Positions 2,488 through 33,236 of a stretch of 64,000 nt of DNA are shown here, piece after piece. Source of the DNA: an uncultured Desulfobacteraceae bacterium (GTDB taxonomy: Bacteria > Desulfobacterota > DSM-4660 > Desulfatiglandales > Desulfatiglandaceae); NCBI GenBank assembly GCA_964473615.1, contig CAYYPQ010000014.1:2229-66228 (forward strand), given 5' to 3'. The translations under genes and the position numbers were made by a program. Position 1 is the first letter of the stretch, and each line of letters opens with the position of its first letter. Below the pieces are notes generated by a model. That model made no database searches. It had not been told where the DNA came from and saw only the letters and a list, made by a program, of their open reading frames with translations.

Positions 2488-3240
2488 TCATTTATTTTTT
2501 TTTGAGTAAAGAAAATGGACTTTACACTTGACGCCGGCAGGAATTTGATACCGCGGGTTTGCCAATTCCAGACGTACCCCGAAATTTCCACTTGCTGCGT
2601 CGATAATCTGGTCCACGATGGTCACTGTGGCGATATGCATGCCACCAACAGGTGATTCCGGACTAACCTGCGCTCGTATTCCCTTTTTTATAGTGCCAAA
2701 CCTTTCAAGGGGAACAATTACTTCCACGTAAAGCGGATTGATACTGACAATGGTCAGGATAGAATCTGTCTCTCCCACGTATTCGCCCGGCGCATGGGAT
2801 CGCTTCAACACTATGCCCTGAATTGGACTGTGAATGGTACGCAACTCAAGGGACTCAATTGCCTCTTGAAGTTGCAACTCATTGATCTGTATTTCCGTTT
2901 CCAGTTCATCTTTATCGTGAATAGAGACCAATTGCTTTTTGTAAAGGTCTTCGTTCCTTACCGCTTTGCGCTTACCAAACTCGACACGCGCACGGGCCAG
3001 GTCTACTGCCGCTTTCTCCACTCCCGCTCTCAGTCGAGCGACTACCTGGTCCTTTTTGACTATATCACCCCTCTCAACCATGATCTCTTCCAAGATGCCA
3101 GGGACTTGACTGCTGAGTTCAACTACCTCGCTCGGCTCCAGTATGCCGTCGAGATCATTATGCTCAGCTGCTTGGACGGCTATAAGTGAGTAAAATAGGG
3201 CCAGCAAAGACAAGATAAAAACCCGTAATACCGATACCAT
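2488..3240 (-). CDS. Short HlyD/RND-type periplasmic adaptor (membrane fusion protein)
   Basis: 250 aa with an N-terminal anchor or signal (VFILSLLALFYSLIAVQA). It has lipoyl/barrel-sandwich motifs (VPGILEEIMVERGDIVKKDQVVARL ... IHSPIQGIVLKR) around a short coiled coil. Confidence 0.8.
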   Translation of the reverse strand: MVSVLRVFILSLLALFYSLIAVQAAEHNDLDGILEPSEVVELSSQVPGILEEIMVERGDIVKKDQVVARLRAGVEKAAVDLARARVEFGKRKAVRNEDLYKKQLVSIHDKDELETEIQINELQLQEAIESLELRTIHSPIQGIVLKRSHAPGEYVGETDSILTIVSINPLYVEVIVPLERFGTIKKGIRAQVSPESPVGGMHIATVTIVDQIIDAASGNFGVRLELANPRYQIPAGVKCKVHFLYSKKNK

Positions 3241-7460: not shown

Positions 7461-7471
7461 CCAAAATTACC

Positions 7472-9445: not shown

Positions 9446-9805
9446 CTAGGCCTTGGTCCCTGGCGGTTTTTCGCCTGACTCGATACGAAGTTCACCGAAG
9501 CGGGACTCATATTCGCGGAGGATATTGTTGAGTAATAGGGATAGGCGCTTGGCCGCATAGGGGTTCAGAATAACGCGATCGCTCAATTCAACGGTCAGCG
9601 CCTCCTGACTGGTATGCCAGCTTTGGTTGGTACCAAAAAGTAAGGTGACTTCTTCCCTAGTGCTGGATACGTTAACCACGTTGGCATAGGTGCTCTTCAT
9701 CTTGGAGCCATCCCAACGTATTACCGGCCTTGAACTTTTAGCATCCTGTTCAGCCTCATTTTTTGCCTCATTCTTTTCCTTGTTATCTCCGGGTGTCTGC
9801 GCCAT
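9446..9805 (-). CDS. DUF3467-like small protein
   Basis: YANVVNVSSTREEVTLLFG...RVILNPYAAKRLSLLLNNILREYESRFG matches my memory of the DUF3467 pattern. The ATG at 9805 is preceded by a perfect AGGAGG 7 nt upstream (ataggaggacaaactATG). It overlaps the last 23 nt of the giant ORF. The track start at 9823 is less likely. Confidence 0.65.
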   Translation of the reverse strand: MAQTPGDNKEKNEAKNEAEQDAKSSRPVIRWDGSKMKSTYANVVNVSSTREEVTLLFGTNQSWHTSQEALTVELSDRVILNPYAAKRLSLLLNNILREYESRFGELRIESGEKPPGTKA

Positions 9806-12800
9806 AGTTTGTCCTCCTATCATTAAAGTTTAAAAAGGGGAAGCCGATAAATGGCAAATCACCGGTTTGGGATCCGGATCTGCTAGAGTGTCCACCTTCC
9901 TTCAACTGGCCGTTATGCCAGCGTAGGAAGCGCCGTTTATCTTCTTCAAGGTTTAACCTCTGGAATGCCTCTCGATTCAAAATCATCTTGTCATCGCTAC
10001 GCCGCGAAGAGACCGCACTCCATCCCATAAATCCGGCAACCATGGCCCCTAATCCGAGGTCCTCACGAGGCTTGCCCTGGTCTGAAGGATCGTGTCGATG
10101 GGATTCTAATTGCCCGGCGGGTATTTTTAACACCTGATCAGGATAGATGACATCCGGATCAGTTATTTCCGGGTTGGCTTCCCAAATCTTCCGCCATAAA
10201 AGGGGATCACCAAATTTTTCTCTTGAGATGTCCCATAGGGTATCACCTTTCTCGACCTTGTATTCTTTATATTGGATCCCTTTGGTGTAGCTTTCAGGTT
10301 CAGTGTAGCCCTCAGGCTTGGCAGCGGCCTCCGTAAGATATGAACCGGGATGGGAGGGGATCTGGGGTAGGCCAGCCCCGCGTGTGCCAGCCACAAAGGG
10401 CTGTATGCCAGCGCCTTTAGCGGGCAGGATGCCGCCGATAAAGGCAAGCCCCGGCGTCTGCCACCCTGGTATAAAGGGTGATCTGTATAGGGAGAAGAGA
10501 GTATTGGCGATGGTGTCAAGGTTGTACTGTCCGAGTCGGACAACGCTTACGACCTTGCCGCCTTCAATGATAGCGCGGGCATAATCACCGATAATGAAAT
10601 CATCAGTCAGATTGCCCACAAAGACATCATTGCCGAAACCACCAAACATGATGTCGTTATTGGTTCCTCCATCAAGAAAATCGTTACCACCGATGAAGGG
10701 GTCAATAGTTTCGATTACGCTCGGTGTGCCGTTGCTCAGGGTCACCTTGCCGCCGTCGCCCAGAATGATATCGTCACCGGCGCCGCCTGCGACAGTGTCG
10801 TCCTTTGCACCGGCTATGATGATATCATTGCCGGATCCACTAGCTATAACGTCATTGCCGCCCACGTTTGCATCAACGGTAAATACTGTGCCTAGTTCGC
10901 GGATGATTCCATCGGTCTTATCGCCGGGGCCACCGCCCCCGAGGACCGTGACCTCCTGAAGATTCTCATTAAGATAATGGACTCGGCCGCGATCGCCGAA
11001 GATAATGTCGTCTCCGCTGCCTCCAGAAATGGTGTCGTTTCCTTTGCCACCAAAGATGATCAGTGGCAGGCTCGATGAGGAGGCGTCTACAGAGTCATTG
11101 TCGCTCACTGGGTCTAGGGAATCGTCAGGGCCCTGCAGGTTGAGCACAAAGAATCCATCGGTTCCGGCGTCGAGAGAGACGTTGCCACGGTCATCACCAA
11201 GACCTGTATTCAAGGTGGTGATGGTACGGACACCATCTCGCTTGTGGGTACTGGCAACCGTAAAGGTGTCTTCCCCGTAGCCGCTCCACAAGGTGATCCC
11301 TCCGGCAAAGTTACCGTTGGTCAGGTCTGTTTTATAGGTGATATCTGCCGGCGCCAATCCCTGGATCATGGCCTTCGTAATCAAAATGTCGCTATCGCCT
11401 TGGTTGCTATCAGAATCGCTAATCATCAATAGATGCCCGCCCTGGCCAGCGTCTATGTTCAATTGGCCTAAGATATCGTCAAGATTGCCTTCAAGGAAAT
11501 CGGTGGAAGTATCGAGGTCTAAATCGGCACCCGACGATACATAGATCCTTTCATTGCCATCATGTAAATCAATGTTGGTGACGGCGGCAGTTCCCTGAAC
11601 GTTGAAGACATCGTCCCCTGAACCAAGGCTGATATTCAGTTCTTCTACGTTCTTATATTGAACACCCATTGCCATGTCAAGGCCGGTGAGCCTGGTGTTG
11701 TTGAGTACTCCAACGTTGGCATCTGTATCGCCGGTATCATCAATATTTACGATATCATCATTATCACCGCCATCAATGGTCAATAGTCCAGCGATATCAT
11801 CCACCACGCCGCCACTAAGCGGTGAAAGGCTGCCCACATTGATTGTATCACTGCCGCCTGATGTGTGAAGCGAGGTCGTACCCTCATGTGTTGCCCTGAC
11901 GTTGAAGATATCGCTGCCCGAACCAAGGTCAATATTCATCTCTTCCATGTCATGATAAACAAGACCGCCGGGATAATCCTTTCCTTTGATCGTTGTCCCT
12001 GTCGACATATTGAGACCGGTCAGTGTGCTACTGCCCAGCCAACCCTCATCGTCGGTTTCGCTATTCGTGTTGTATGCATTTAGCGTGTCATGGGAAAGTG
12101 TCTCATCCAGTTGTGCAATCAATTCATCACCGCCTAGTGACGGGTCATCTTCTCCTTCCCCTGGCATGTTAACCGGATCACCTACTGGCCGTGCCCCTTC
12201 GCCATCGCCACTGCCACCTTCAATTCTGAGCGGTCCCCTAATTGAGCCAAGGGAGTTTGTTATGGTGAAATCAACATCCTCATCTGTAACGATGATATCT
12301 TTAAGGTTGACATTGTCAGGCACACCCCCGACGTGGATGGTGTCGTTGCCGTAGTTGCCTAGCAAGACAGTGTTGACAATAGGGCTTGTTGAGAGCACAA
12401 AAATCTGGTCATCGCCAATATACGTGTCGACAATAAGGGTTTCTACATATTCATAGTTTGTGGTCAGGCCGGCGCCAAAGACACCTTTGTCAGTAACAGC
12501 AATGGCATCATCAAACTCTGTGCCGATTAATATTAACCTATCCTCTCCTTCGCCGCCGTTTATGTTCACAGGTGCATTTACCACATACTTGATGGTATCT
12601 GCTCCCTTACCACCTGTGATTGTTGTACCTGCCTGTGCGAATGATCTGACATCAAATTTGTCGTCACCGTCTTGCCCGTTTAATTGAAGTTCCTCCCGAT
12701 TGCGGTAGACCGTGATATCGTCGTCACCGTCACCGGCATTGACCGTTGTGGCAGCGCTGACGCCGTTGCTGAGAAAGCCAAGTGTTGTTTCCACTGTCTC

Positions 12801-15800
12801 CACGCCGGCAGGAGCTGATTTGAACACCTGCCCTATCTGGATCCTGTCGTTCCCCGCGCCGGCATTGATGGTCGTCTTTGCAGAGTTATCGTCGAGAACA
12901 AGGTGGTCATCTCCTTCACCGCTATTGATGATCAATTGGTTATTTATGTTTTCGTCGTACCAGACCCTCTCGAAATCAGGGTGGTATTTTGGCTTGCCTT
13001 TTGCGTCACGCCCGTCTGGCCTTAGCAGGGCCACGAAGTCTTTCCGGAATAGGAAGGTGTCGGCCACAGACGTGCCGTTGATGGTCAGGGTGTCATCACC
13101 TGTGGCACCCGTATCGAGCACCTTTAACTCCGATTTGCCCGTACCGGTCAGGTTTACGAGGTACTGGTCGCTGCCACCCCGGCCGTCAATGGTCCACACC
13201 GGCGCCGGATCAGGTCCGGTATAGATAACATCTGTCAGGGTAACAATATCATCATCACTCTCTCCATAGACCGTCACAGGACCGAATGGAATGGGGCTTT
13301 CAAAATTCATTACAGAGCCGATTCCTGGGTCTGCATTTCCGTAATCACCATAAAGCACTACCCCTGTTGCTGCTCCAATTATGCCGCCGGTTTCTATAGT
13401 GATGTCGTCACCGGCCCTCAATATCACCGATCCCGTAAGACTCCATATCGCATTCGCCTTGGTCCCGCTAACGGACAGGTCGTCTCCCGCATCACCCGAC
13501 TCTGTGACAGTCATTCGGACATCGCCGGAAATTGACGTTACCTGAAAGTTGTCCCCGATAACAAGGTCGCCATCTGCCTCGGCAAGATAGATGCCCAGGT
13601 TTGCCGTAACATCGAGGGACCAAGACGGGGAATCCTTAGAATCGAAATCCACATCATTATCGAGAGTGCCGACTCCGCCGGTCTGGGCGTTGAGATAAGT
13701 TTTTCCTCCAGAAAAAAGGTTGCTTTCTTCATTATTGATACCGTCGAAGATCGATCCCTGGGCTACCAGGTTTATATCATTCCCGGCAGAAACCGTGTCC
13801 AGATAAAGGTCTGCCACGTCCCTAAGGTAGATGTCGGTGTCGGCCCTTGCGGTGAGGGTGGCCTGTCCTTTCAGGTCAATTCTTAGCTGACTATCCTGAG
13901 TCCCTATATAACCCCCGGCATTCGTTGCATTGAGAATCAAATTGCCAGATGTGCTTATAGCTGTCGTCTCATCGGTATAGACATCCGTGATGGCCCCGCC
14001 GGCCTGCAGGCGCACATAGCCTCCTGCCACAACAGAATCAATCTTGAGATCCCCTTCTGCCTGCAGTGCGACACTATCCCCTGTCGCGACTGTAACGCTT
14101 TCAGATGCTTCAACATTTATGTCATTCCATACCTGCAGAGTCAGGGTCTCGACTTCACCGTTTTGGTCATAGGTTACATCCAAAATATCGTCCACAGTCG
14201 CCACGGTCAGTATTTCCTTCTCCTGGTCGGACAGGGTTTCAAAACCGTGGGACAGATCGATGGTAACAACATCTGTAATACGGCCTACCTGGCTATTTTC
14301 ACCTCCGGTCATCATTGTTACATGACCGCCTAGGATATTGGGTGTTTCGATTATGTCGGTTCCGTGGGCCACAGCGCCGTCTGCATCTGGATAAAGGAAG
14401 CTGAAAAGAGATCTCGAAACCGGATACCTCAGGGCACTGGTGGAAAAAGTCCGGTCCGAAATCCGGTCCTGCCGTTCCTGGTCGGATATATGGTAGATAA
14501 AGTTGGGATCGTACACTCCATCCCCATAGGTATCGTGTACCTTTTGATAGCGCTCGTCCAAGGGGACGTCTTGCTGAAGGTCCCCGTAACTATAGCCGTA
14601 CTCCAGCAAACTGGTATAATTGAAATGTACGTCCCCTTCGATGGTAATATCCATGACCTTTGGGGTCTTGCTGATTGCGGCGTCATATCTGGAAAGGGCG
14701 AGTTGAATTGTTGTATCATTCTTCACAACAACATAGTAAGCAAGATTGTTTTCGAGATTTGACTGGGGCTTGCTGACACTCTCACCCTGGTAACTGTAAA
14801 GCGTACCGTCATGAGTCCTGACCAACTGGTTTGTCTCGAGCATAACGCGTGTTCCCACAGCGAGCTTATCAAGGGCATAATCAGGAGCGATCTCGGCCCA
14901 TCTGGCTGCATTTTTATAGTCCTCAGCGGCCAGATCTACATTATCAGTGTGCTCACCCAGGTAGCTGTGCAGGATACCATCGACCGTTCTGACAATCTGA
15001 TCTGTTTCAAGGCTGACCGTACCCGAAAGATTTCCAAGGTCATAATCGGGAACGATCCCGGCCCATCTGTTGGTATCGCCATAGTTCTCCTTGCTCAGGT
15101 CGATTCCCACGCTGAAGAAGACCTGGTCACCGGTCTCAAGCCCGTGAGGCTGGCTGAAGCTGATTTCATCTTTGACTGCGTCAATGTTCTTAATCGCTAT
15201 TTCACCAGCCACATAACTCGGCCTGGCGTCGCGGTACGCTTGCCAGTAACTGTGGTAGAGCTGGGTTTGGGCCCCTTCTTCAAGCTGAATAGCTTTTTCC
15301 GCTTCATCGATAGCCCCCTGTCCTGTCAGTTGCTGTTCCTTGTCGAGCTTGTCGGCTTCTTGTTGTGTGCGAGGTCTGAATTCTTCATAGAAGGCATCGA
15401 GTATTGAACCATCGTCAACTCGCAGATAAACGTCCCCCTGCTCGGAATGAATGGATGCATCAAAACCGTCAAAATCACCCCCCCAGGTCTGCGGCTGGGC
15501 GGGCTTTAAATCTCCCTCTATCTCACGTATGTATATGTCTCCATGGGCCCTGGCTGCCACACCACCGGAGCCAAGAACATCGCTATCCACCCGCAAGTAC
15601 GAATCGGCACTTCCGATTTGGCCTCCTATGGCATAGAGCTCGATCTGGTTGCCGCGGATGAAGGAGGACTGGTCAAATGCCTGAATACCGTCACCGGCAT
15701 GTAAAACAACATTGCCGCCCGTTGAGATGATCTGGCCAACAATAATCGTGCTGCTTTGATTTCCATCTGGATCAAATACAACCCGGATATCGATATCCCC

Positions 15801-18800
15801 CTCAGAAGTGATGGACAATACTTGTGGAACTTGTGGGTCTCCCTGGACACTCATGGCCGCCAAGGGGGAAAGCGGTTTAGATGTCTTCCCGCCCTCGACA
15901 TTCGCCCGCACTGAGCCACCGGCATTGATGGTCGGGCTCACACCCAATACAGCCGCCGTTTCTCCGAAGATGACATCCCCACCCGAAGTCAGGGTAATAC
16001 TTCCTTCCTTAGGACTGGTGATGGTTCCCTGGAGATGGAGATCGTTCAAGGTGTCAATGTTAATCGAAGGGGCCGCCGGGGCCTGGATAAACGAAATCCC
16101 AATGGGGTAGTCCGCCTCCAGCGTATGGGTATAATAATCCTTCTCGCCGAAGGTTTGGGTTACCACGGTATGGGCCGTCTTTGTCCTGAGCCAGCCGCCG
16201 CCCGTTGTCCAACGCTGCACATCGTAGGTATAATTTTGAAAGCTACTATCATATGTGATATCCGCATCCGTCGTTGTCGCGCTTACATCGGTCCATTTCT
16301 GCGTATCTGAGTAATCCTGGTCACGCAGCACGAGTTGCGCATTCTGACCTATATACAGGTAACGGTTCCCGACCACACCACCTTGGGCAAGTCTTACCCC
16401 GTTTTCATCAACGACCACCTTGATAATGTCAATGTTCTGGATCAGTTGCACATCCGTGTCATCTTTCATTTCGTATTGAATCGTATATGCCTTACCATCA
16501 GCATAACCCAGGACCTCAACCTGAGAGACCCATTTGCTGGAATCCGTGTAGTCCGCTGTCCCTAAATCAAAATTGTCCGCATCGGCGCCTTGATAGAGGT
16601 AAAGCGTGCCGTCCACATCCTTGACAATCTGCCCGGTATGGAGATCAACCAGAGTACCTGAAGGAAGCGTGTTTGCGTCATAATCCGGCTTTACAGTCAG
16701 GACTTCAGACTCGAGAAGCGGATATTCATCTCGGAAATTGGTCACCTGCGACTTGTAGCTCTGATCTTTTACGGCACCATCCCAATCAAAACCAATCAGA
16801 TTGAAGCTCTTCTTCTCATAGGTTGTGACCAAAACCCTCGTCTTCTCCTGCCCCTCCGTCCACAGGTATTGCAGTCCTTCACGCGGTTGGTACTCCATGG
16901 TGTCATTTTGATCGTAATAGTGGGAATCCACCTCTTCATAAACAATGCTTGAGATCACGCTATCGCTATCGCTTAGATCGCCTCCACCGGGCGTCCCCTG
17001 GTATAACGTCTCCTTGATCTGGCCCAGGTCATCATCGAACTCATACTCCACCTTTTGAAATTTGCCCGTATCGATGATCGTGATCTTCCCCTCTCTCTTT
17101 TTGGTTGTGTCTATCCTGTTGACAACCAGCTCATAGGGGCTGTCGTTCTGGATGTCGACATTGGTATAACCGTGAGCCACCCTGAGCATACCGTTTCCCG
17201 TGCTCAGGATCTCACCTGCCAAAATAATTCTGCCGCCTTGCGGAACAATCTCATTAACCACAATGGCCTGTTTCTGCGCATCAAAATAGCCGTCCACAGG
17301 CACCCTGTCAGTACCAAAGCTGATCCCTTGAAGCGGGTTCCCATCATCATCAAGAAATAAAGTAGTGCCGGAAGGGGCAAAATCCTGACCCACGTGGAGG
17401 GTTATGGTCTGAACGCCACTCTGGATCAGCCCATTGACATCCAGGTACCGGGCCGTTATGGCAACCCGGCCCTGGGCAAGGATTGAGGAGCTCCACGGGT
17501 CGATAGAGTCAATGAAGGGGTTATTGTCATAGGTTTTGGTGGTCAGGTTTCCGGCCTTATTGAAGACCTGGCCGCGATAGTTGTCGAGGCCCGGGTATTG
17601 CCGGGGGTCCATGTTGTGGAACCAATCGTCCGTGTTGAGATTGAAGTCCTTGGCGGCCCTGATTTCCACGTTTTCGGCCCTGATTTCCCCTGACACATTG
17701 ATGCTGCCCTCATTATTAATAATAGATACATCCCCGACTTCGTTGATAACGTCTCCTACAATGTAGAGGTCCTGGGGCAGGCCTTCAGGAATTGCCAGGT
17801 CAATATTGTAATCAGTCCCCTTTCGGCTTATGGAATCCTGGGTAATGGTGATGGCCTTGTCCGGAGGATCTTGAATGGAGGTTATCCCTTTGTAGTTGAA
17901 ATACACATTGCCCGGAGTAAGGACTGTATATTCTCCATCAACGACAGTGACTCGTCGTGTATCTCGAATCACCGTATCATATACTGTCAGCGAAAACGGT
18001 GTCTCATTGGCGACATTTATCTTTGCACCTGCCCTTGCAACGAGTTGGTTGTCCACCAGGGGCACAAAGGCATCACGATAGTTCGCATCTGCCTTAATAT
18101 AGATCGAACCGGGAGCGGCGTAAATATCGGGTAGCTCAACGAACAAGACATCCAATCCTTTATTGGCGACCTGGGCAGGTTGCCCGGTATCCGGGTCAAT
18201 AATGCTGTCCAGCAGTCCCAATTCCGACAGGCTTTCTTCGACCAGGGCAAGCTGGATTTCATAGCGGGCGACGGCCTCCGGGTTACTCGAGTGGTTTGCA
18301 ATCCAGTCCAGGATCTTATCACGCTGTGCAAGGAGGACGCTCCCGACATTCTGGAGCGACAGTGTGGGGGCATCAACCCTGGTAGGTTTGACGACATAAA
18401 ATTTGTTTTTAAGGGCTCCCTTCAAGGAAATGGTCACATCGCTCATGTAGATGGTGGGCGCCATCTCACCCCATGTTGCAATATCGCTAAAATCTTCGCT
18501 GTTCAAATCTATATTATTAGCGCCCTGATCCGGCAGATACTTGTATAACGTGTCTTCAGTCGTTCTCACGATCTGCCCCTTCTGAAGGGCGACCGTCGTC
18601 CCAGGAGCAAGCGTATGTAAGTCATAATCAACGGTAATTTTTTCCCACCTGCTGGTATCGCTGTAATCCTCCTTATCCAACACTATCAGGTCCGGCTTAT
18701 CGATCTCGGGCTTGTATCTATACAATGCGCCAAGCTCTCCACCCCCGGCCACAGGGTTTCCATTCCCGTCATCCGCCACCTGGATGACCGTTCCCGTGTA

Positions 18801-21800: not shown

Positions 21801-24800
21801 ACCAGGAAGTCCTGCCTCATTAACATATTCATATATATCGCCATCATCTAGCTTGATCCTTTCTCCTTGAAGGATCTGATCAGGCTGCTGGCTCGTGGTA
21901 TAGTCAAAGGAACTCTCACTCGTGGTGACGGTGCTGTCTTCAATATATGCCTTGACCGTGTTTCCGATCGTGTTCGTCACTTTGGCACCGGCCCCGCTCA
22001 GCGCCACGCCCACCGATCCAAAAGACGCCGCAAGAGCTGCGGCCACCGACGTGCCACCAATGCTTGCCTGCTCCAGGGCCTTGAGCGTCACCGCCCCGTC
22101 AGCCGCCGCCATGTTGTCGGCGTGAATGATGTAAGCCTCCACCTGGTTGGCGATAGTGTTTTCGGCAAGGGACACCCCGATGGCAATGGAAACAGCCGCA
22201 CTGCCCGCAAATGAGGCGGCCAGGGACCCAGCCCCCACATCCGCAGTGATTTTCGAGGTGTCCTGGGCCGTCAGTATCAGGCTGTCTGCAACGATCCCCG
22301 TGGAACCATCGCCGTCTATGAATGCCTTGACATTAGTAGAGATCTTGTTCTTGGCATCTGCCCCAGAACCGCTGAGACTGACACCTGCCGTGCCGGCAGC
22401 CGAGATCGCGACCGAACCGGCTACCACGACTGCATCGATGGTTTCATTGGCAAGAGCGCTCTGGATGAGATCTCCCTGCGTGGCTATGCTGGAATTCTTG
22501 AGGTAAGCCTGCACCTGAGCCGGCATGTAGTTGCCGTCCTTATCCCAGCCTATCATGTTGCGTGCCAGCGAAGCACCGATCGAGGCCCCGACACCGGCCG
22601 TGCCTCCAGCACCTACAGCAACGGATCCGGTGATCACCTTTGCTGTAATGCTGGAGGTATTTGTCGCGTCAAGAACCACATCACCCGTACTGACGAGATC
22701 GGTACCCAACACGTAGGCATTTGTCTTGGTCAGAATCACGTTCGTGGATTCAGACCCGCCGCCACTGAGGGCTATTCCGGTTTCACTGCTTGCGCCTACC
22801 CCTATAGAGGCAGCTATCGAAAGTGCTTTGATGGTGTCCAAGGATGTGGCGCGGAGCGCAACAGCCCCGGAGGTCAAAACGATGGTGTTGTTGGGGGCCT
22901 GCAATGCCGAGTTGTCGATGTAGGCCAGGGCGCTGTTGCCAATCGTATTTTGCGCAATGGAAACGCCAACGGAAATCGCCCCCCCAATCGACGTCCCACT
23001 CGCGCCAACCGCAATCGACCCGCCGACAGCATTCGCGATGATGCTGGCGTTGTCTGAGGCTGTGAGCGTCACGTCACCGGCCGTGCTCGTGATGGAGCCA
23101 ACCCCCTTGATGAAGGACTCTATGGTGTTAGCAATGTCATTGTAAGACGCAGCCCCGGTACCCGCGCCGGCAAAACCGGAACCTCCACCGGAGGCACCCA
23201 CCGCGACGGCCCCGCCGATCGTCAGGGCATCGATCTCTGCCATGGAGGTGGCGCTGAGCGTCACATTGCCGGCGGCCGAGACGGACGTGGTGCCGGGATT
23301 TGGAACATCGGAGTTGTCGATGAAGGCCCTGACCTTATTCTTAATAGAGTTATCCGCACGCGAGACGCCAATGGAAAGCGCCCCGCTTGTCGATTTTCCG
23401 CTCGCGCCTACCCCAATAGCGACACCGCCGCCGTCCGCGGTGATGACGGTGGGTTTGAGCACCCTGTAGGTGTTCTGCTCTTTTTTAATCAGGTACGTCT
23501 CGCCGTTCCCGTTATCCTTTACAAGCCACTCTCTGCCCTCGGCCCTGACAATCACGGTCACGTCATTCGATAGGGTGATCCCCTTGGCTGCAAAGGCGGC
23601 CCGCCAGGCAGCCGGAAGTTGCCCGTCGTTCTGGTAGTCGGTGGCCTGCAGGGCCGGCGCATCGAACAGTGCAAGTCCGTCAATCGCCGTCAGCTTCAGG
23701 CTCCCGCCCGTGCTCGTGACAGAGCTAACCCCTTTGATATAGGCCTCAACGGTGTTTTTTATGTCATTGTAAGACGAAGCACCCGCGCCTGCCGCCGCTA
23801 ATCCAGATTTGGTACCTGAAGCACCCACCGCAACCGCGCCACTGATGGTCAGGGCATCGATCTTGGCCGCGGATATGGCCGACAGTTCAATATTACCTGC
23901 GGATGTCACCGAAGAACCGTCGATGAAAGACCTGGTCTTATTTTCAATGAGATTATCGGCAATGGAAACACCCACCGAAATAGCTCCGCCCGTGCCCTGC
24001 CCACTTGCGCCCACTGCAATTCCGACGCCGCCCGCATCTGCTGTGATGTTGGAGCCGTCAGTGGCAGTCAGGTTCACGGCCCCGGTACCCGTGGTAGTGA
24101 CTAGGCTCCCGTTCTTGATGGCCGCTTCTATCGTGTTTTTAACGGTGTTGCCTGAACCGGCGCCGGCACCCGAAAATGCCAGACCGGACCCCTTCCCCGA
24201 AGCCCCTACGGCGAGGGCGCCGCCGATGGTCAGTGCATCGATGGTGGACGTGGACGTGGCGGTCAGTCCCACATTGCCGCCGGAAAGGATTGTAGAATTA
24301 TCTATGGTGGCGTATATGTCATTGCTAATCTCATTTATGGCCATGGACATACCGATGGAAATGGCGGTCCCGCTCCCTTTACCGCCCGCACCGATCGCAA
24401 TTCCTGCTCCTCCCGCATCGGCGGTGATGGTAGAGGCGTCCGTAGCAGTCAGGTTCACGGCCCCGGTAGCCGTGGTCGTGACCGCGCTGCCGTTCTTGAT
24501 TGTCGCTTCTGTAGTATTATCGATTGTGTTGCCCGAACCCGCGCCGGCGCCGGAAAAGGCAAACCCGCCTTTCTTCCCTACGGCTGCAGACACGCTGCCC
24601 GCAATGGTGAGGGCGTCGATAGTAGACGTCGAGGTGGCCAGCAGGTCCACATTGCCGGTCGAGGTAACCAGAGAATCATCAATGGCGGTGCATACGTCAT
24701 TGTCAATATTGTTGATGGCAATGGAGACACCAAGCGTGAAGGCCTTGCTTTTTTTCCTGTCCTTCTTGCTATCTCCAGAGTCTTTTCCAAGGGCAATCGC

Positions 24801-27800
24801 GACCCCACCCGCAATGACGTCGATGTGGGAGGTGTCCGTAGCTGTAATCAATATGTCACCGTCAGCATCTATGCCACTGGCGGTCTTCTCTCCACTAATG
24901 AATGCATAGGCATCATCTGAGATCACGTTGACCGAGACGGAAATGGCTGCTGCCATGGTCCCTTTGCTGGCACCGATTGCCGCGGCAATGGCCAGGATAT
25001 CTGAATCGTTTTCCGCATCCAGGATAATGGGGCCACTCGTGGTGATATCAGAATCTGCCACGTATGCCTTGCTCGAAGTATCAATGTAGTTCACGGCCAC
25101 ACCGGCACCCACACCGGCCTTGCCACCGTAAGCGAGGGCGCCGGAGACGGCAATAATCGATGAGGTATCATCGGCTGTTAGGGATGCACTCGTGGTATTA
25201 CTGATGACGGACCCGGAGTCCACATAGGCGTCGGTATCGCTGGAAATGAGGTTGACGCCCACAGAGCCCGCAATGCCCGTACCCCTCGTGGCCCCGGATA
25301 GGCCCGCGGCGACCCCAATAATCCGGCCGGTCGCCTCGCTGTGGAGAGTGAAGTCTCCGACGTTGTCGAGGACAGAGTCGTGGACGTATGCCCGTGTCTC
25401 ATTCGCGATGTTATTGACCGTGACCGCACCGGCAAGCCCGAAGTTACCCTTTTGGTTGGTCGACAGGGCCCCGGCGCCTGAAACCGCAACGATCAGCGTG
25501 GATTCAGTGGAAGTTAGTTCGAGGCCGTTGGACTGGGTAACAACAGAATCTGCTATGAAGGCCTCGGTGTTATCCAATACCATGTTGACCGAAACGCTAC
25601 CCGATACCGCAATTCCGTATTTTCCTCCGCCGCTTGGCGATTCTTTGGCCTTTCCCTGATCTTTGGGTGAAGGGCCGTCGCCGGTCTTGGAAGCAGCCAG
25701 TGTCACCGTGACAATCAGACCCTCGTTCGTGGCACTGAGGGTGGTCTTTCCGCCCGCACTAAGGGAGCCGTTCACGTCATTGGGTTCAAAAAACCTGTGG
25801 GCCGTGCCGGTAGCAACCGATGGATCCAGTGCAAGGCGTAGGCTATGGGATTGTCCTGACCCGAACAGTGTGTCCAGAACAAGTGGGGTTCCGCCGATAG
25901 TATCCGATAGTTTGATTTCAGTATCACTCTCCCGAATGACATAATAGGTCTGACCATCGTTCAGGTTACCAATGCTCTCATCTCCACCGTTTTGGTAAAC
26001 CACGGCATCACCGGTCTTAAAACCGTGGGCATATCCCAAATCAATTGTGGTCCCTGAGCCACCTGTATTATCGAGGTCTTGAAGGCCAAAGAAGGTTAGG
26101 GGGTCTTCTTGGGACTCGAGGACGGATCGGGCCAGTTTGATGGTGTTTGTGTCGATGGTGTTTACGTAATACGTATCGCCGCTGGTAAGCCCCCCGATAG
26201 GGGTGCCGTCGCCACTGTCATATACGATGGCCTGTCCTTCCCTAAAACCAGGCGTGCCTTCAAAGTGAATGGTATTGGTATTTCCATTAACGACGGGTAT
26301 CGGTTTAAACTCTGCGCCAATAGTATGGGAAGTCCCCTCCGCTGGGGATGCATCAAGGGGGACGTAAGTACCTTCAAGGGCCTTCCATGGGGATTCTGCA
26401 AGGCGGATGGTGGTTGGACTTTCCACGATCACATAATACGTACCCTTGTTCTCCAGGCCGCCAATGCTCTTGCCGCCACCGTTGCTGTAGACCACCTTCT
26501 GGCCGTCGATGAAGCGATGATTATAACCGAGGTTGATGATACCGTCGTCATTGTTTACGGCACTCGACGGATCGAACCCCATTCCGAGGCTGTGTGTCGA
26601 ACCGCTCCCAAATGAGGGATCCAGATCCAGTCGCAGGGAGTGCATTGCACCCGTACCGCCCTGACCCAGATCAAGGTCAAGCGGTTTTGGGGTATCGGAC
26701 AGGGCATCGTCGGGTAACTCTGCCAGTTGGACTTGGGTGTCACTAACCCGGATGACATAATATGTTTGACCGTCCGTGAGTCCGCCGATGCTCTCATCCC
26801 CACCGTTATGGTAAACGACTGCATCGCCGGTCTGAAAGCCATGGTCATAACCCAGGTCAATAGTCTCCACACCCTGCGCGTCATCCACATCGGCAGGAGA
26901 GAAGAGGGTAATCGGATCTTCATTTGCCTCCTCAACGGACCTCGCCAGTTTAACGGTCCTGGAATTGGTGACGCGAACGTAGTAAGGGTCCGCATCAATC
27001 AGACCGCCGATACTGCTACCGCCGCCGTTGCTGTAAACGACCGTATCACCCGTCTTAAGGCCGTGGTCGTACCCGAGGTCAATGGTATTCTCCTGATCGT
27101 TGACGCCCGTGCCTGGGGCAAAATCGCCATGTCCCAGGACCGATTCCTGATTGCCCATGATTGCCTTGGTATTGCGGTCGACCAGGTTTGTTCCTGAAGT
27201 GATTCCGAATCCCAGGCTCTTGCCCTGAATGATGCCGCCGACAAAATTTACGTTGAGCGCGTCATCCCTTGCGGTAACATCAACATTTCCATCTGTCGTT
27301 ACAACAGAGCCATCGTCGATCTTGGCAAGGGTATTGTTGCTCATGTCCACCAGGGTGGCGGTCCCGCTGGCGGAGAATGTGCCCGAAGTGCTGCCGGCAA
27401 GGCCGAGTGCCATGTTCTTGGTGATCGTCTGGGCATCTACCGCTAGGTTATCGGCGTTCACACGGGAACCGGACTCGATTGCGGCGGTGGTGGTGTTGGT
27501 ATAGAAAAATCCCCCGAAAGAACCACCGATAGCCGCGCTGTTGCCCTGATTGTTCGCTTCCTTATCGGCAAGTGTTACTTTCTTGAGGACCCTCGGGTAG
27601 TGACCGACCAGGTTGATGGCCTCTATATCGTTTTGGGCCTTGACGGTCACATCCTGGCCGGGTACGTCCATGTTTTGATTAATAAGTGCCCCTTCTCCGA
27701 TCAGGGCGGTGGCGGAGTTGTCGAGAAAGAGAAGGTTGGCGGATCCGGCAATTCCCCCCTTATTTGCCTCAGCCATACTAAAGGCCCAGCTTGTCACAAA

Positions 27801-30800
27801 ACTGTTGGGGCCTATATCTGTGGTGCTGACCGCTGATATCAGGTTTTTGTAATCGGCACCAATTTGCTTCATGGTGCCCCAGATGGTCTGATAGGGGATA
27901 AGGGTCTCCGACTGTACGAGGATCGCCCCCCGTGCATCCACTGTGGCCCCCGAGTCGATCAGGGCAGTAGACTCGTTTTTGTAGTCGCCGACCAACAATG
28001 CGATGCTGCCGGTGTATTCTTTCTGGACTTGTTTCTTGTTATCCTTTGCCTTGTAATCCTTGTCCGTCCCTGAGCCCACGACACTTGCGGCCGTGATATC
28101 CGGCCGGGCGATGGCGTCGGCCTTGACTGTAACATTCCTGCCTGCGTTCACAACGGCCGTGGAGCCTATCCTGGCCGTGGCCGAGTTCTTGTGGTCACCC
28201 CAGGCAACGGCCAAAGACCCCCCGAACTTGCTTAGCTTCTCTGAGAAGCGCTTGGGTTCTTCGGTCACGGCGTTTGATCTCGATCTCGTCTTTATATCTT
28301 CTACCTTTTCCGGAGGTTTATTGAATTTTTCTTTCAACATGCTGGTAGCCTTGCCGACACCAGGCTTAAAGAGATCCATGCTGAGCTTTATGGGAGTGGC
28401 GCTGTTTAGGTAATTGGTTGTTGTCGCAAACCAGGAATCTCCGATCTTGGATTGGGCCTTCGTAATGTTCTTGGCACTGATCGCCTGGGAGATGACCGAG
28501 ACGTCCCCGTTTGTGGCTGTTACTGTCCCGTTGAGGGTGGCATCCGCTGTCGCCTCCGAGAAGGCCACCAGGATGCCAGCGCCGATAAAATCAAAGGTCC
28601 CACCGCCGCTGGCGCTGCTGCTCAGGTTTTTGGTGTTGATTGCCATTATGTCGACGTTATCGCCTGCCGTAATAGTAGCGCCGCTTGCAACAGTCGTTGT
28701 GGCATGCGAATAGGCCTCAGTCCATGCGAACGTAATATGGCTCGGAATTGCCTTGTCCCCGAGCGTATCGCCCAACTTTTGTGGGGTAGTACCCATAACA
28801 TTCAAGGCCGTAACGCTCATGGTGTTCTTGGTGTCCGATTGAATTTTCACATTGCCTGCCGCATTAATGGATGTGCCCCCTTGCACGGTGACTGTCGCAT
28901 CCGACTCGGACAGGCCATAGGCCACGCTTGCCCCGATTCCAAGGCTGGTAACCTTGGCCTCGGAATTGGAATGGGCTTTCACGTTGACGTCGGCGTCGGA
29001 CTGGATTACGGTGCCGGAACCGATAAGGATATCGGCGGTAGACTTGGCCTTGCTTACACCCACAAATGGCCTGATGTTGCCGAAGAAATCAAGCGCCGAC
29101 TCTCCGACCTCCTGGGCCTTGCTCTTTTCACCGTCAAAGATGTTGTCATTGTCGGCATCCGCCCGGATAGTGATATCGCGACCCCTCAGGGTGGCGCCAT
29201 TGATCTCTATCCTGGCGTTCGTACTGCTGTCTACGTATGCCCATGTCTGAGAGTGATCAATGGTTGTTAATGTGATATCACCCCCGGCACGTAACAGGCC
29301 ATTGACCTGCGCAGTAATGGAACCGCCAATACTATCTGGATCTTGAACAGTAATGGTCTCATCGTCTACGTAACCGGTCCCGCGTGAGTGAATATACAGG
29401 GTAGGGTTGCCCCCGGTATCGGTGACAATATCGACCGTCAATCCTGTCCCGGAGCCTGAGGAAGTAGTCTGTAACTCGGTATACGACTTTCCAGTCGTCC
29501 AAGGCATTTGCTGTGTTAGCCATGACTGATTATATAACCCGGCTGGAATCCCTAGGGGATCAGTTGCAGATGGGCGGTCGTCAAAGGTCAGGAGCTTGGC
29601 CCCGGTGCCAATGATGATCGTCTCACCCGCAAAACCCAGGTTGCCGGAATCGCCTGTCGACAGGGACGTCTCCGGGTCACCCACCACATCCCGCGTGGAA
29701 ACAACGACCCCTGAGGCAACGCTAATACTCTCCGCATCGATCGAAATATCCCCCCCGCCGCTCGACGCACTTCCACTGAAGATGACACCGTCATTGCCGC
29801 GCCCGCCCAGGATGCTCAGTGCGGCGCCCTTGGTATCGACATTGCTGATGTTAATAGTGTCATCGCCACCGCCCAGATCGATGGTCAATGATGCGGATGG
29901 GATATCAAATACCTGGATTGCATTGAAAGTGCCTATATTCATCGTAAGCCGGAGCTGGGTGTCCAGTATTCCGCGATCCAGGGTCACTTGTCCGGACAAA
30001 AAGGAGGTCCTGATAGTCGTGTTAATTGGGTCAGAGCTATCCAAATAGAAGATTGGCTCAATCCCCGTATAGGCGATGGCACGCGTGTCACCGACAAAGA
30101 TTGTGCCTACGTTCAAGATGCCTGCACCACTGACGTCTGGTTGAACAGGGGTCAAGCTACCCGGGTTGGAAGGATCCTCGACGGCAAAACCGTCAAAGCC
30201 GCCGGCACCGCCATGAATGGCACCACTGATGCTGCCGCCACTGTAAAAGATAAAGCCATCCTCGTTGTTCGTGGCGCCGGTCAGGTTTTCGAAGCCGGCG
30301 AAGCCGACGCCTGCCACGTCGCCAGAATTAGCGCCGGTGATGTTCCAGGTGCTGTCGGCATCCGGACCAGAGAGGGAATCGTTGTTCCCGGCGCCCCCGA
30401 TGATGTTCTGGATATCGCTGACGCTCGATGCGCCCGGTTGCCCGCCACCGCTGCCCAGGTTGACGGTCACGCTGGTTGTGCTGTATAGATGATAATCCAG
30501 GGTGTTGCTACCACCGCCACCGTCGATGGTTCCACTTACACCCATCGCATTTGCAAAGACGAATGTATCGTCTCCGAGGCGGCCCGCGAGGTTCTCAAAG
30601 TCGCTGAAGGTTACGTTCCCAATGACGCTGCCTCCCGAGTCGGTGGTGATGAGTTGTCCGCCCCCCATGCTCGTGATATTCCAGGTGGAGTCATCCGGTA
30701 GGCCGAATAGGGTATCGGACCCCGAGCCTCCTATAATGACATCGATGTTGTCGACAACAATGCCCAGAGAGACGGTAATCCCGGTGCTCGTGGCGCTATA

Positions 30801-33236
30801 GTCCAGCGTGTTGGGCCCGCCGCTTCCTCCATCGATTACCCCGTCGACATTGCTCCCTTCGACAAAGACAAAGTCGTCCTGGCCGCTTCCGCCGGTCAGG
30901 TCCTCAATGCCGTTGAAGCTTATCTGCGTATTCAGCGTACCGGCATTGTCCCCGGTGATATCCCAGGTATTCGTCCCATTCGAACCTATGAGGGTGTCCA
31001 GTCCATCCCCGCCCTCGATGGTAATTGCTGCGCTGAAACCGGGATCCAGGGTGCCTATGTTCATCGTATCATCGGCGGCGCCCAGGTTGATAGCCAGTAT
31101 TGAGGCGGGATTGACAAAGCTCAATGTGCTGATAAAACTGTCCGTGGCCCTGTCAAAGAAATCGCTCGATGCGCTGCGAATCTGCATTTCGCCGGGTGTA
31201 GCCGCGTCCTTATCTTCCAGCACCAGGTCGTCATTATAGGCGCTCCCGTGTATCACAACGGTATCAGCCACACTGGCGTCAATGATTGGCTCCATGTCCT
31301 CATAGGTGATCGTCTTATTATAGAGGCTGACAGACTCAAGGCCATTTCCGGCAGGGTTGATCACAGTAAACGGACCATCCTCTGCAGGATCTTCGGCGAT
31401 CAGGCTGTCAAATCCCCCTGTGCCGCCACGCACGACCCCGCTCATGCTGCCATTTGCGAAAAAGACAAAGTCATCGTGGTTTCCTGCGCTGCCGCTTAAA
31501 TTTTCAATGTCTAGGAACTCTGTCTGTTCATTGAGCAGACCCTCGTTGGGACCGTTTATTTCCCATACACAGTCGGTCCCGGGGCCTAAGATCGTGTCAA
31601 TACCTTCGCCGCCCGAAAGGATGTCATCACCATCAGTGCCTTTCAATGTGTCGTCGCCCAAACCGCCGGAGAGGATGTTGTTCCCGTCATTGCCGGTCAA
31701 GACGTCGTTACCCGAACCGCCTATGATATTGTGGATATGGCTTACACCAGCTGTTCCCGTTGCTGACCCGGTCGTACCAAGAGAATCAGGCGTTGAAAGA
31801 TCTACCATTATAGGGTTCAGACTCGAAAAGGCAGAGTAGTCAAGAGTATTATTGCCGCCGTTTCCACCGTCAATAGTCCCGGCAAGGTTTGCACCATCCT
31901 CGAAGACATAGGTATTATCGCCCTGACCGCCTATAATGTTTTCAATATTCCTTGAGTTTATGGTATGGTTCCCGCCTGCGATGGAGACCGTGCCATCATC
32001 ATTTACGGTATATTCCCCGTCAGTAACGGTAACATCACCATTTGTGCGGATGACAAAAATCAAATTGTCTTGGATCTGGGAGAAGTCCAAGGCATCGGTA
32101 TCTTCACCTCCATCGATGCTTGTGCCGGAGGTGTCAGGAAATGCCGAAAAGATGAAGGTGTCATCGCCCACTAACCCATTGACTGTAAGATCGTCTCCCG
32201 GATTTAATGTCTGAGGAGATGTGGCTCCACCCGTCACTTCTGCTGTATCCAGGGTAATGGTTTCATCGGCCGCAGTTCCATCAACCGTTATTGCGTCCAA
32301 AAGGAAGGCATAGTCAAATGGGTTGGAGGTCCCAAAGACAGGAAGTGCCTCTATTACGCCGGTGCTGTATTCCAGCACCCAGTCACCGCCCATATTAGGG
32401 CTGCCGGTGGCATCTATTGAAGCGGCCACATCAGCATCTGTCCATTCACTCAGGTCTTCAACAAAATCAACCCCGGTTTTTCCCTGTCCAACGCTGCAGC
32501 CATAAAGCAGAATGTCGCCACCAGGAGCCATGGACCTTTTCCATGTATTTAGCTCCGAGGTACGCTCCGCCAGGTCAGAGCTGTCTATCTGGCTACTGCC
32601 CAGCCGCAGACTACCCGCGGCGCCGTGAGATAGGATGTGAATGGCATCGATTCCTTCATATTTCGCCAACGTCTCGCTGATCTGGTCAATACCGTCACTA
32701 TCGCGGTCAAGGACCACGACCTTGACAGGGGAATTGCCGTCAGTCTCTTGTGGACTAGTTGCTTCATCGTCTGGTACATTTGTTGTGTGGTTGAGTTCTT
32801 CAAGCAGAAACGAGTAATCAGGGACAGAGGGATCGACAAAAACGATTTCCTGTATGGGCTGCCGGGAAATTACCTGGGTAGCCTTTGCCGGGTCGGAAGA
32901 GGGCGTCTCAGGGGCGACCTCAGGGGAATCAGGGTCCGGGATGTGGGGCTGTTGATCCGCCTGCGCCAGCCCTACATCGATTTTCGGGCTATCTCCTGCA
33001 ATTATTTCAGACTTCGTTAAGTCGCCTTCGTATTGCGCCTGAATAGGGACCAGATCAGGCAATAAATCGGCCCCCTCATGAAAATCATGAGGGGGGATCA
33101 CGAGATCCGCAGACAGGAGTATTCGACTTTCCAACGCCTCAAATATAATCTTGCGTCGATTAGCGCCCTCCCTTGACCCAAATCTGCCCGACAAGGGTTT
33201 GAGTCTTCGGGCAATCTTTTTCATTCTATTCAACAT
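9783..33236 (-). CDS. Giant (7,817 aa) repetitive surface/adhesin-like protein: LEPR-XLL-like N-terminal motif, DUF4347, RTX Ca-binding repeats, several repeat families, beta-helix region, C-terminal RTX block, LysM and a TM-like segment
   Basis: A single uninterrupted 23.4-kb ORF. Domain calls are listed as separate features below. It has no classical Sec signal peptide; the N terminus is strongly basic ([29 protein letters not shown]). Confidence 0.9.
   Translation of the reverse strand: [7817 protein letters not shown]
10011..10058 (-). other. Only TM-like hydrophobic segment I noticed in the giant protein, about 76-91 residues from the C terminus
   Basis: [28 protein letters not shown] is followed by a basic 75-aa tail ([35 protein letters not shown]...). 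The positive-inside rule suggests the tail is cytoplasmic and LysM is periplasmic. Confidence 0.45.
10113..10262 (-). other. LysM (peptidoglycan-binding) domain near the C terminus of the giant protein
   Basis: [50 protein letters not shown] is a textbook LysM pattern (V..GDTLW.IS......LW..I...N.....P..I.PGQ.L.IP), verified against the DNA at 10201-10260. Confidence 0.85.
10580..11065 (-). other. C-proximal RTX-like Ca-binding repeat block
   Basis: [52 protein letters not shown] and [36 protein letters not shown], verified against the DNA at 10561-10620 and 10981-11040. Confidence 0.8.
22510..24700 (-). repeat. Gly/Ala/Ser/Thr-rich beta-helix-type coding repeats of about 125 aa (at least 5 units)
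   Basis: The recurrent unit is ..IDNS.V.S.GNV.L.ATS...IDALTI.GA.AVGASG.GSG.A.SGAGAGS.N.I.NT.EA.IK....VT.T....L.A.[13 protein letters not shown]...G.AIS.G.S.A.N.I.N... Confidence 0.75.
25900..27100 (-). repeat. Several (at least five read) tandem coding modules of about 65 aa (LGYxHGFxTGDxVVYxNGGxxSIGGLxDGxTYYVI...I.LA)
   Basis: [201 protein letters not shown]. Confidence 0.8.
31587..31724 (-). other. N-proximal RTX nonapeptide (GGxGxDxxx) Ca-binding repeat block
   Basis: [46 protein letters not shown] was verified against the DNA at 31621-31680. Confidence 0.85.
32361..32849 (-). other. DUF4347-like domain of the giant protein (residues about 130-292)
   Basis: [15 protein letters not shown]...[45 protein letters not shown]...[50 protein letters not shown] is the typical DUF4347 pattern that commonly follows LEPR-XLL motifs. 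Confidence 0.65.
33102..33134 (-). other. LEPR-XLL-like N-terminal motif of the giant protein ([11 protein letters not shown], residues 35-45)
   Basis: [14 protein letters not shown] matches the LE(P/S)RxLLSA signature found at the N termini of very large repetitive proteins (the NCBIfam LEPR-XLL domain, as I recall it). Confidence 0.6.

Follow-up and report, generated by a model that had tools for sequence, protein, structure and literature searches.

The stretch of DNA analyzed here, referred to below as the window, comprises 64,000 nt of contig CAYYPQ010000014.1 from an uncultured Desulfobacteraceae bacterium. The initial annotation of the window described a giant gene on the minus strand, and the open reading frame (ORF) was found to be real, running as a single unbroken frame of 7,817 aa. 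The encoded protein has a computed net charge of -576 and contains only five Cys residues. Its gene lies in a co-directional array on the minus strand that extends from position 34715 down to 454, with small gaps between genes or overlaps of their ends. The array opens, in this order, with the following genes:

33330..34715, minus strand: TolC-family outer-membrane channel, the first gene of the array (TIGR01844, 334 bits against a cut-off of 225; two Pfam OEP domains)
9783..33236, minus strand: giant ORF, one uninterrupted frame, presumed cargo
9446..9823 (probable start 9805), minus strand: small DUF3467 protein (PF11950, E = 1.7e-21), overlapping the stop of the giant gene
7472..9358, minus strand: GAF domain, one transmembrane (TM) helix and HlyD/membrane fusion protein (MFP) periplasmic adaptor, or GAF-MFP (Pfam GAF, HlyD_3/HlyD_D23)
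5316..7460, minus strand: PqqD-like N-terminal domain, similar to a RiPP recognition element (RRE), followed by an M50/site-2 protease (S2P)-like HExxH intramembrane metalloprotease and an HlyD/MFP adaptor, or M50-MFP
3253..5364 (probable start near 5250), minus strand: truncated SecA-like ATPase (SecA_DEAD, PP_bind and P-loop_SecA domains)
2488..3240, minus strand: small periplasmic MFP-type adaptor with a signal peptide (TIGR01730, 127 bits, above the cut-off of 94.9; N-terminal hydrophobic segment)

No match to ABC_tran or ABC_membrane was found in any annotated ORF of the 64-kb window, which also held neither a C39-like domain nor an ATP-binding cassette (ABC) transporter able to receive a C-terminal signal. 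LapG/LapD-type matches did not turn up in the annotation scans of the window ORFs, a result obtained with no dedicated search for them. A canonical type I secretion system (T1SS) was rejected, as its cognate HlyB-type ABC exporter was not found in the window. What the operon does encode, namely a truncated SecA-like ATPase, TolC and three MFP-type adaptors, agrees with the earlier proposal of a route unlike that of LapA-type T1SS adhesins and driven by a SecA-like motor. Taken as a whole, the sequence data suggest that the giant protein may be the cargo of a conserved, ABC-less, TolC-dependent secretion module that spans the envelope, with export N-terminus first and retention by the C-terminus; we regard this combined reading as a serious possibility that falls somewhat short of probable. 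Its parts differ in strength. A non-T1SS, SecA-like-linked route with an N-terminal signal appears well supported by synteny. N-first threading with C-terminal retention seems plausible, because the charge distribution around the C-terminal module is asymmetric and the LysM domain is of a periplasmic type.

The synteny extends over several phyla. The M50-MFP fusion had more than 7,600 relatives at E < 1e-10 and at least 599 matches in contigs representing one genome per species, with a range covering Desulfobacterota, Alpha-, Beta- and Gammaproteobacteria, Omnitrophota, Nitrospira, Myxococcota, Phycisphaerae and Flavobacteriales. When 82 loci were tallied, a SecA-like gene was present in 78, a GAF-MFP gene in 75, a small MFP gene in 66 and a DUF3467 gene in 40, while TolC lay within 10 kb in only six. 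The five-gene block from DUF3467 to the small MFP recurred beside giant genes in many phyla. Past their giant genes (17,800 and 12,631 aa), the two loci L001 and L002 had the genes arranged as in the window, with DUF3467 at a position like that in the window (7567-7926 and 6870-7205, respectively), and the order TolC followed by the giant gene was also seen in loci L010 and L084. Of the 37 loci that extend 9 kb or more in both directions, 30 had an ORF of at least 1,000 aa beside the module, most of these ORFs running off the locus; three of the 30 (L039, L055 and L063) were helicase-like and not giant cargo, and L029 was an additional locus missed by the filter. Culturable Proteobacteria carrying the module included Neptuniibacter, Marinobacterium, Vibrio, Pseudomonas, Bradyrhizobium and Methylobacterium.

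A reverse test was made on the neighborhoods of three DUF4347 N-termini, DUF4347 being the domain that follows the leader of the giant protein. In L084, the DUF4347 gene lay behind TolC, as in the window. In L083 (Pseudomonas solani AP023081.1, 1395-18901), a distant M50-MFP, another MFP and TolC were found beside the DUF4347 protein, and in L085 only a DUF3467 gene was nearby. The gene order in L083 was small MFP, a GAF-less HlyD-like gene and the distant M50-MFP, then sulfotransferase, hydroxylase and acetyltransferase genes, and beyond those the DUF4347 protein, a PATR-repeat protein and a TolC-like gene.

The SecA-like protein retained the GEGKT and DEAD motifs as well as nucleotide-binding domain 1 (NBD1), the preprotein cross-linking domain (PPXD) and NBD2. 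It scored 626 bits against a SecA cut-off of 814 and fell below every NCBIfam cut-off for SecA and SecA2. It aligned to Bacillus subtilis SecA over residues 35-603 only, and since only about 14 residues remain, it lacks the wing domain, the two-helix finger and the C-terminal tail. A canonical SecA or SecA2 identity was rejected, with the domain set incomplete and the scores under the cut-offs. In the M50 domain of the M50-MFP fusion, residues H210, E211, H214, N306-P307 and D312 were invariant in 24 sequences, giving the HExxH and the zinc-ligand NxxPxxxxDG motifs of an M50/S2P-like metalloprotease, and at least five TM helices were present. Pfam PF02163 was precomputed for many of its homologues. 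The PqqD match was weak in the window protein itself, and PqqD was precomputed for several homologues. Against the NF041824 daptide-type protease, the fusion reached E = 2e-44, below the cut-off; the nearest curated relatives of its M50 domain were leader peptidases (daptide protease, YydH/LiaK) of ribosomally synthesized and post-translationally modified peptides (RiPPs), with NCBIfam scores well short of what those families require (152 against 300 bits). The TM helix of the GAF-MFP protein spanned aa 364-382, with a Kyte-Doolittle (KD) value of 2.33. No sequence relative of DUF3467 was found in the PDB, with either a single sequence or a profile; the protein may serve the SecA-like ATPase as a dedicated chaperone or adaptor in the cytoplasm. 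Larger DUF3467-domain proteins of 688 and 378 aa were encoded in L001 (16951-19017, minus strand) and L002 (17483-18619, minus strand), two Desulfobacterota-type loci, where they adjoin a radical SAM gene just downstream of the module. NCBIfam (June 2026) contained no dedicated model for either the SecA-like or the M50-MFP component, and exact-sequence look-ups for the window SecA-like protein and for P0001 returned no record.

Within the giant gene, the following features were distinguished, from the N-terminus of the protein to its C-terminus:

33084..33236, minus strand (aa 1-51): N-terminal leader, a basic stretch and the FEALESRILLSADL motif of the LEPR-XLL / Planctomycete-extracellular type
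32856..33083, minus strand (aa 52-127): Pro/Asp/Glu-rich linker, predicted to be disordered (AlphaFold predicted local distance difference test score, pLDDT, 41-67)
32307..32855, minus strand (aa 128-310): DUF4347 domain with a caspase/legumain-like (clan CD) fold and conserved His204 and Cys247
29787..31937, minus strand (aa ~434-1150): N-terminal RTX/beta-roll block (Pfam HemolysinCabind; seven GGxGxD motifs)
12615..29786, minus strand (aa ~1150-6875): central region of ~5,700 aa, unmatched by sequence in Pfam and the PDB
10617..12614, minus strand (aa ~6875-7540): C-terminal RTX block (Pfam HemolysinCabind in three stretches; six GGxGxD motifs; PDB matches)
10119..10262, minus strand (aa 7659-7706): LysM domain (Pfam PF01476, E = 2e-10, 40.7 bits against a gathering threshold of 20.9)
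10005..10058, minus strand (aa 7727-7744): Ala/Gly-rich hydrophobic patch LGLGAMVAGFMGWSAVSS, the first block of the conserved C-terminal module
9918..10004, minus strand (aa 7745-7773): predicted basic helix RRSDDKMILNREAFQRLNLEEDKRRFLRW, the second block of the module, ending in an invariant Trp
9786..9917, minus strand (aa 7774-7817): distal tail, with a third, partly conserved block LPFIGFPFLNFNDRR common to the closest relatives

The N-terminus of the protein, MLNRMKKIARRLKPLSGRFGSREGANRRKIIFEALESRILLSADL, carries a net charge of +8 over 45 aa and matched the NCBIfam 'LEPR-XLL' family NF012209 at aa 31-51 with 30.8 bits (cut-off 17), which places it in that family; the leader also gave a weak match to the Pfam family 'Planctomycete extracellular' (PF07595). 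The initial annotation had noted a basic N-terminus with this motif and no hydrophobic Sec signal, and both observations were upheld. By Kyte-Doolittle analysis, no unbroken h-region of a Sec (type I) signal peptide was present in the first 50 aa, because the best 19-residue window (KD19) reached 1.35 and was broken by E, E, R, S and D. Among 120 N-terminal homologues, 64 had the LEPR motif, which started at a median distance of 28 aa from the Met and followed a region of net charge +4. In 11 loci, including members of the Omnitrophota and of the Beta- and Gammaproteobacteria, the large ORF beside the module opened with x-F-E-x-L-E-P-R-x-L-L-S-A-D. This retention of the motif in giant genes beside the module across phyla is in keeping with its description as an N-terminal export motif, and the Planctomycete motif had already been proposed as a novel export signal in 2004 (as reported in PMC8567305). 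Proteins bearing the motif fractionate with the cell envelope in Tuwongella immobilis (PMC8567305). None of the papers found identified an exporter for the LEPR-XLL/Planctomycete motif.

A homologue search with the N-terminal 320 aa returned only fragments of up to 560 aa, and for this reason the N- and C-termini could not be linked at scale. Both ends were visible only in the window protein, P0126, P0132 and P0165, and an LEPR leader occurred together with the C-terminal module in three of these: the window protein, P0126 (6,168 aa) and P0132 (1,444 aa). As judged from the alignments, both ends of the giant protein carry conserved elements, a basic LEPR-XLL leader at one and an AGxxGW-RRFxRW module at the other.

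The DUF4347 domain that had been placed after the leader motif was recovered with Pfam PF14252 at aa 131-310 (E = 3e-50, 170.5 bits against a gathering threshold of 24.6), which establishes its family membership. AlphaFold, run with a 51-sequence alignment, modeled the domain with pLDDT 92-98, falling to 59-64 over aa 151-170, and gave aa 1-127 as disordered. When the model was used as a Foldseek query, the top PDB match was Tce1, a type VI secretion system effector, followed by legumain, caspases 3, 6, 7 and 8, and Csx29. Among the 51 DUF4347 sequences, Cys247 (YGC) was invariant and His204 (SHG) was conserved in at least 90%. The model and these residues suggest that DUF4347 is probably a clan-CD cysteine peptidase domain, separated from the leader by ~80 disordered residues.

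RTX repeats had been reported near both ends of the protein, and this description held. The 13 GGxGxD motifs were confined to aa 506-1144 and aa 6875-7532, with Pfam and PDB matches in both blocks, and none occurred in the ~5,700 residues between the two. The N-terminal block matched the RTX regions of CyaA and serralysin in the PDB with E = 1e-21. Homologous RTX blocks were found in the upstream giants of 28 loci. The central region contained long Ala/Gly/Ser/Val-rich repeats at aa ~2500-4300 and a recurring unit of ~65 aa ('...G(D/T)(I/L)YxY...DL...DY(S/T)D...W', or '...IYxY...DYSDT..W').

The C-terminal LysM domain, also present as first described, was confirmed by its Pfam score and by a confident AlphaFold fold (strand-helix-helix-strand, pLDDT 82-91); its best PDB relatives were TsaP, a periplasmic peptidoglycan anchor, and Kbp. 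The initial annotation had made this domain part of the anchoring logic of the protein, and there the reading failed with respect to the family: none of the 82 syntenic loci and none of the 14 genome-derived homologues had LysM, other linkers taking its place. In L001 and L002 these were 'LPDGT(x)(V/I)' repeats of 8-10 residues situated just before the C-terminal module, and in other homologues acidic linkers. The LPDGT-repeat stretches lay at ~6600-7300 in L001 and ~6000-6600 in L002, within the C-terminal regions of the giant genes. A metagenomic subclade (P0122, P0126, P0128, P0132, P0147 and P0209) had LysM directly before the module, and P0165 and P0135 had LysM copies upstream of a different tail. 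By this distribution LysM is an accessory, lineage-specific insert that lies outside the conserved module.

The segment at 10011-10058, LGLGAMVAGFMGWSAV, had been called TM-like and the only such segment in the protein. Neither part of this description survived. We took ~18-22 consecutive apolar residues and a KD19 of at least 1.6 as the criterion for a TM helix; the segment has an uncharged run of 18 aa and a KD19 of 1.03, whereas TM helices of the same operon (GAF-MFP, M50 domain, HAMP protein) reached 1.8-2.7. In 25 homologues the uncharged run was 9-17 aa (median ~14) and the tail maximum of KD19 was 0.41-1.46, never 1.6, and position 2 of the patch was often Glu. Seven KD19 windows of 1.6 or more were located at aa 2747-4157, inside the Ala/Gly/Ser/Val-rich repeats, and are more hydrophobic than the patch. 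When the C-terminal 178 aa were modeled with AlphaFold, only LysM was folded and the patch appeared as an eight-residue helix with pLDDT below 50. For the purposes of annotation, the patch should not be called a 'TM anchor'.

In an alignment of the giant-gene C-termini of syntenic loci with metagenomic relatives, the patch and the basic helix form a conserved C-terminal module (...AGxxGW...RRFxRW) of ~50-90 aa. The consensus of its first block was L-x-x-h-h-A-G-h-x-G-W-x-h-A-S, followed by a basic linker, and that of the second was L-(N/D)-R-E-x-F-x-x-L ... R-R-F-x-R-W. W7773 was the only invariant column in a 13-sequence alignment of the tail. Several homologues (P0126, P0128, P0147, L014 and L065) stop at or beside this Trp, so that the final 44 aa of the window protein would be dispensable. 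A search of the representative library with the last 278 aa was dominated by multi-LysM proteins, leaving ~12 matches informative for the tail, and a profile search with the 13-sequence alignment returned two proteins at database-wide E-values. Sortase-type CTERM signals (LPXTG, PEP-CTERM, GlyGly-CTERM) were rejected, as an NCBIfam scan of the last 500 aa returned LysM and RTX only; the 73 aa beyond the patch compare with the terminal basic cluster of 3-8 residues in sortase-type signals. These 73 aa hold ~15 K/R and 10 D/E, a net charge of +5, so that the tail, earlier described as rich in Arg and Lys, is indeed basic but only moderately so.

The flanks of the patch differed in charge. The mean net charge was -3.0 in the 20 aa before it and +2.3 in the 20 aa after it, and the charge after the patch exceeded that before it in 24 of 26 homologues, with a p-value inflated by the relatedness of the sequences. 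This acidic-before, basic-after pattern fits a cytoplasmic tail and the positive-inside bias. The C-terminal tether with a cytoplasmic tail proposed in the initial annotation therefore stands in part: the charge asymmetry fits it, but the supposed TM helix is too short and too weak and LysM is not conserved.

These elements can be assembled into a tentative scheme for N-first export. In the cytoplasm, the PqqD/RRE-like domain of the M50-MFP fusion would bind the leader and keep hold of it as if it were a signal peptide. The SecA-like ATPase would then pass the chain, unfolded and highly acidic, with its N-terminus leading into a conduit formed by the membrane domains, the MFP adaptors and TolC. 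Outside the cell, the N-terminal RTX block would fold with calcium and block back-sliding, and either the M50 metalloprotease or the neighboring caspase-like DUF4347 domain may cut off the leader. The C-terminal module would arrive last and would stop or retain the chain on the inner-membrane or periplasmic side, relying for this on the basic helix and on the short patch at the interface and not on a classical TM helix. In this lineage, LysM may pin the retained end to the cell's own peptidoglycan. A more ambitious version would make this a widespread Gram-negative system in which a truncated SecA-like ATPase, acting with RRE-M50-MFP and GAF-MFP proteins, replaces the ABC transporter of the T1SS, reads the LEPR-XLL leader, and moves its cargo N-first through TolC up to a C-terminal stop module, here reinforced by LysM, as the mirror image of LapA-type retention; in that general form we consider it possible but rather less probable than the proposal for the window protein.

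Several points weigh against N-first export with C-terminal retention. The evidence is all genomic, and no result obtained here fixes the direction of transport. The two-helix finger, which pushes chains in canonical SecA, is absent from the SecA-like protein. No SecA-like gene was found within 10 kb in L083. A position at the very C-terminus, past an RTX block, is likewise the hallmark of T1SS signals, and the conserved module would suit a C-terminal secretion signal equally well. The AlphaFold pLDDT was ~40-46 over the whole tail, and a classical C-terminal TM anchor was rejected on the KD19 values and run lengths (9-18 aa) given above. Distant proteobacterial cargoes lack the patch and often have h-[DN]-W-[SGN] 10-40 aa from the end; this C-terminal Trp motif was counted in 28 of 41 ORFs against a background of 13%, with a regular expression chosen post hoc and some of the ORFs being spurious frames, and is a lead only. 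The absence of LysM from the syntenic loci and the genome-derived homologues belongs here as well.

Some of these points lend themselves to the opposite direction. In a C-first, T1SS-like export, the C-terminal module would be the signal, read by the GAF domain, DUF3467 or a clamp of the SecA-like protein, and the end bearing the leader, linker and DUF4347 would be retained or processed as in LapA; the leader might be held by the RRE/M50 protein and released by the M50 or the clan-CD peptidase. The module does lie at the extreme C-terminus, ~230-280 aa past the last RTX repeats, and is predicted to include an amphipathic basic helix; some homologues end exactly at the invariant Trp, the distant cargoes retain their Trp motif (with the post hoc expression noted above), the MFP and TolC parts are T1SS-like, and a protease-like domain with a disordered linker of ~80 aa beside the leader would suit a cleavable tether. 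Against this, the 64-kb window contains no ABC transporter or C39-like domain for a C-terminal signal, and the N-terminal motif is the more widely conserved element of the cargo and a documented putative export signal. A LysM domain 20 aa from the end that leaves first would sit far from the cell's own peptidoglycan, and a basic, positive-inside-like C-terminal flank is unusual for exported T1SS signals. We consider C-first export a doubtful but real contender.

Full release of the protein is improbable in our view. Here, by analogy with rhombosortase and GlyGly-CTERM, the patch would be a cleavage site of the S2P-like M50 protease, the basic tail would be discarded, and LysM would bind foreign peptidoglycan, chitin or debris. 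The catalytic residues of M50 are all conserved, so that some substrate must exist; small, helix-destabilizing residues in a short membrane-proximal stretch are typical of S2P substrates, the region past the invariant Trp is variable or absent, and many LysM proteins are secreted and bind foreign glycans. However, the closest curated relatives of the M50 domain cut N-terminal leaders and an RRE-like domain is present, the distant cargoes have no hydrophobic patch, and the fixed position of LysM beside the C-terminal module in several relatives suggests a tie to the module and not an independent role in binding. A classical bitopic anchor, with a TM helix at aa 7727-7742 across the inner membrane, a cytoplasmic tail and LysM on the peptidoglycan, is more improbable still: the charge asymmetry obeys the positive-inside rule and LysM lies immediately upstream, but the hydrophobicity of the patch is well under that of the operon's TM helices, its uncharged runs (9-18 aa, median ~14) and frequent Glu at position 2 do not suit it, AlphaFold gives only the eight-residue, low-confidence helix, and the sequence-specific conservation of AGxxGW is atypical of simple anchors.

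N-first export with C-terminal retention can also be set beside known systems. The T1SS adhesins LapA, MpIBP and SiiE resemble the window protein in being giant, acidic, Cys-poor repeat proteins with RTX beta-rolls, encoded next to TolC-family and MFP genes and probably retained at the surface through one terminal module. In contrast to them, the window has a SecA-like ATPase and an M50 protease-MFP fusion and no ABC exporter, and its protein opens with a conserved leader, has an RTX block near either end and closes with a conserved module and basic tail; where LapA has an N-terminal retention module, the window protein has its leader, disordered linker and caspase-like domain. Proteins of PF07595 (RRLxxExLExRxLLA) and NF012209 share the motif past a basic stretch and a bias toward the longest proteins of their genomes, but in the window the motif is physically linked to the SecA-like/M50-MFP/GAF-MFP/TolC module, and also to a C-terminal module that has not been described for them. 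In RiPP and bacteriocin exporters (peptidase-containing ABC transporters, PCATs; daptide protease, YydH/LiaK), an RRE/PqqD-like domain and an intramembrane HExxH protease recognize and remove an N-terminal leader during export, a combination of domains also seen here, whereas the cargo in the window measures thousands and not tens of residues and the protease is fused to an MFP and accompanied by TolC and a SecA-like ATPase. Accessory SecA2(/SecY2) systems of Gram-positive bacteria likewise encode a dedicated SecA paralogue together with a very large surface protein, but no SecY2 or Asp genes were found here and the partners, MFPs and TolC, belong to a diderm envelope. TsaP and the inverse autotransporters (intimin/invasin) similarly have LysM at the end of a surface structure that is presumed to lie nearest the cell, whereas no beta-barrel or secretin partner is present here and LysM is optional in the family. 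Giant proteins of Omnitrophota and Actinobacteria embed truncated SecA domains, with the DEAD and preprotein-binding parts but without scaffold and wing, and these domains have been proposed to export the giant proteins (bioRxiv 10.1101/2023.11.21.568195). There SecA lies inside a giant protein with many TM helices, whereas here the SecA-like ATPase is a protein of its own (665-703 aa) encoded in an operon with TolC and MFP genes, and its presumed cargo lacks a convincing TM helix.

A Vibrio genome paper described an LEPR-XLL/RTX protein of ~8,000 aa and left its export undiscussed (PMC10868602). No paper on this gene set was found in a literature search that mostly did not extend to subscription journals, and such absence is not proof; the ABC-less TolC/SecA-like pathway is apparently undescribed. 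By hidden Markov model, the giant protein belongs to the LEPR-XLL/DUF4347 family.

Past the small MFP gene, the array continued (454-2470, minus strand) with genes for a SurA_N-like protein, a two-TM HAMP protein and a 195-aa protein with an N-terminal hydrophobic segment. These three are probably lineage-specific accessories, because none was found among the called genes of L001 or L002. The remaining genes of the window were housekeeping genes, including those for a corrinoid methyltransferase, F-type ATP synthase, bactofilin, RNase Y, PolA and RNase G. One ORF of the F-type ATP synthase operon (38710-39714, plus strand; 334 aa) consisted of four tandem c-subunit hairpins (four Pfam ATP-synt_C domains), with the ion-binding Glu in hairpins 1 and 4 only and Gln at that position in hairpins 2 and 3. 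From its sequence, this ORF would be an unusual fused c-subunit carrying half the carboxylates.

The largest bacterial proteins include giants of the LEPR-XLL/DUF4347 type. The window and ~80 syntenic loci tie the LEPR-XLL motif to a gene set made up of SecA-like, RRE-M50-MFP, GAF-MFP, small MFP, DUF3467 and, often, TolC components, and in this way the question of which exporter serves the motif becomes testable, the gene set being available in culturable Proteobacteria. If confirmed, the proposed pathway would mean that a SecA paralogue is able to drive export through a tripartite TolC conduit. It would also provide a route to the surface for the LEPR-XLL proteins encoded beside the module, and perhaps for the wider family, and may represent a mirror-image solution to the problem of adhesin retention.

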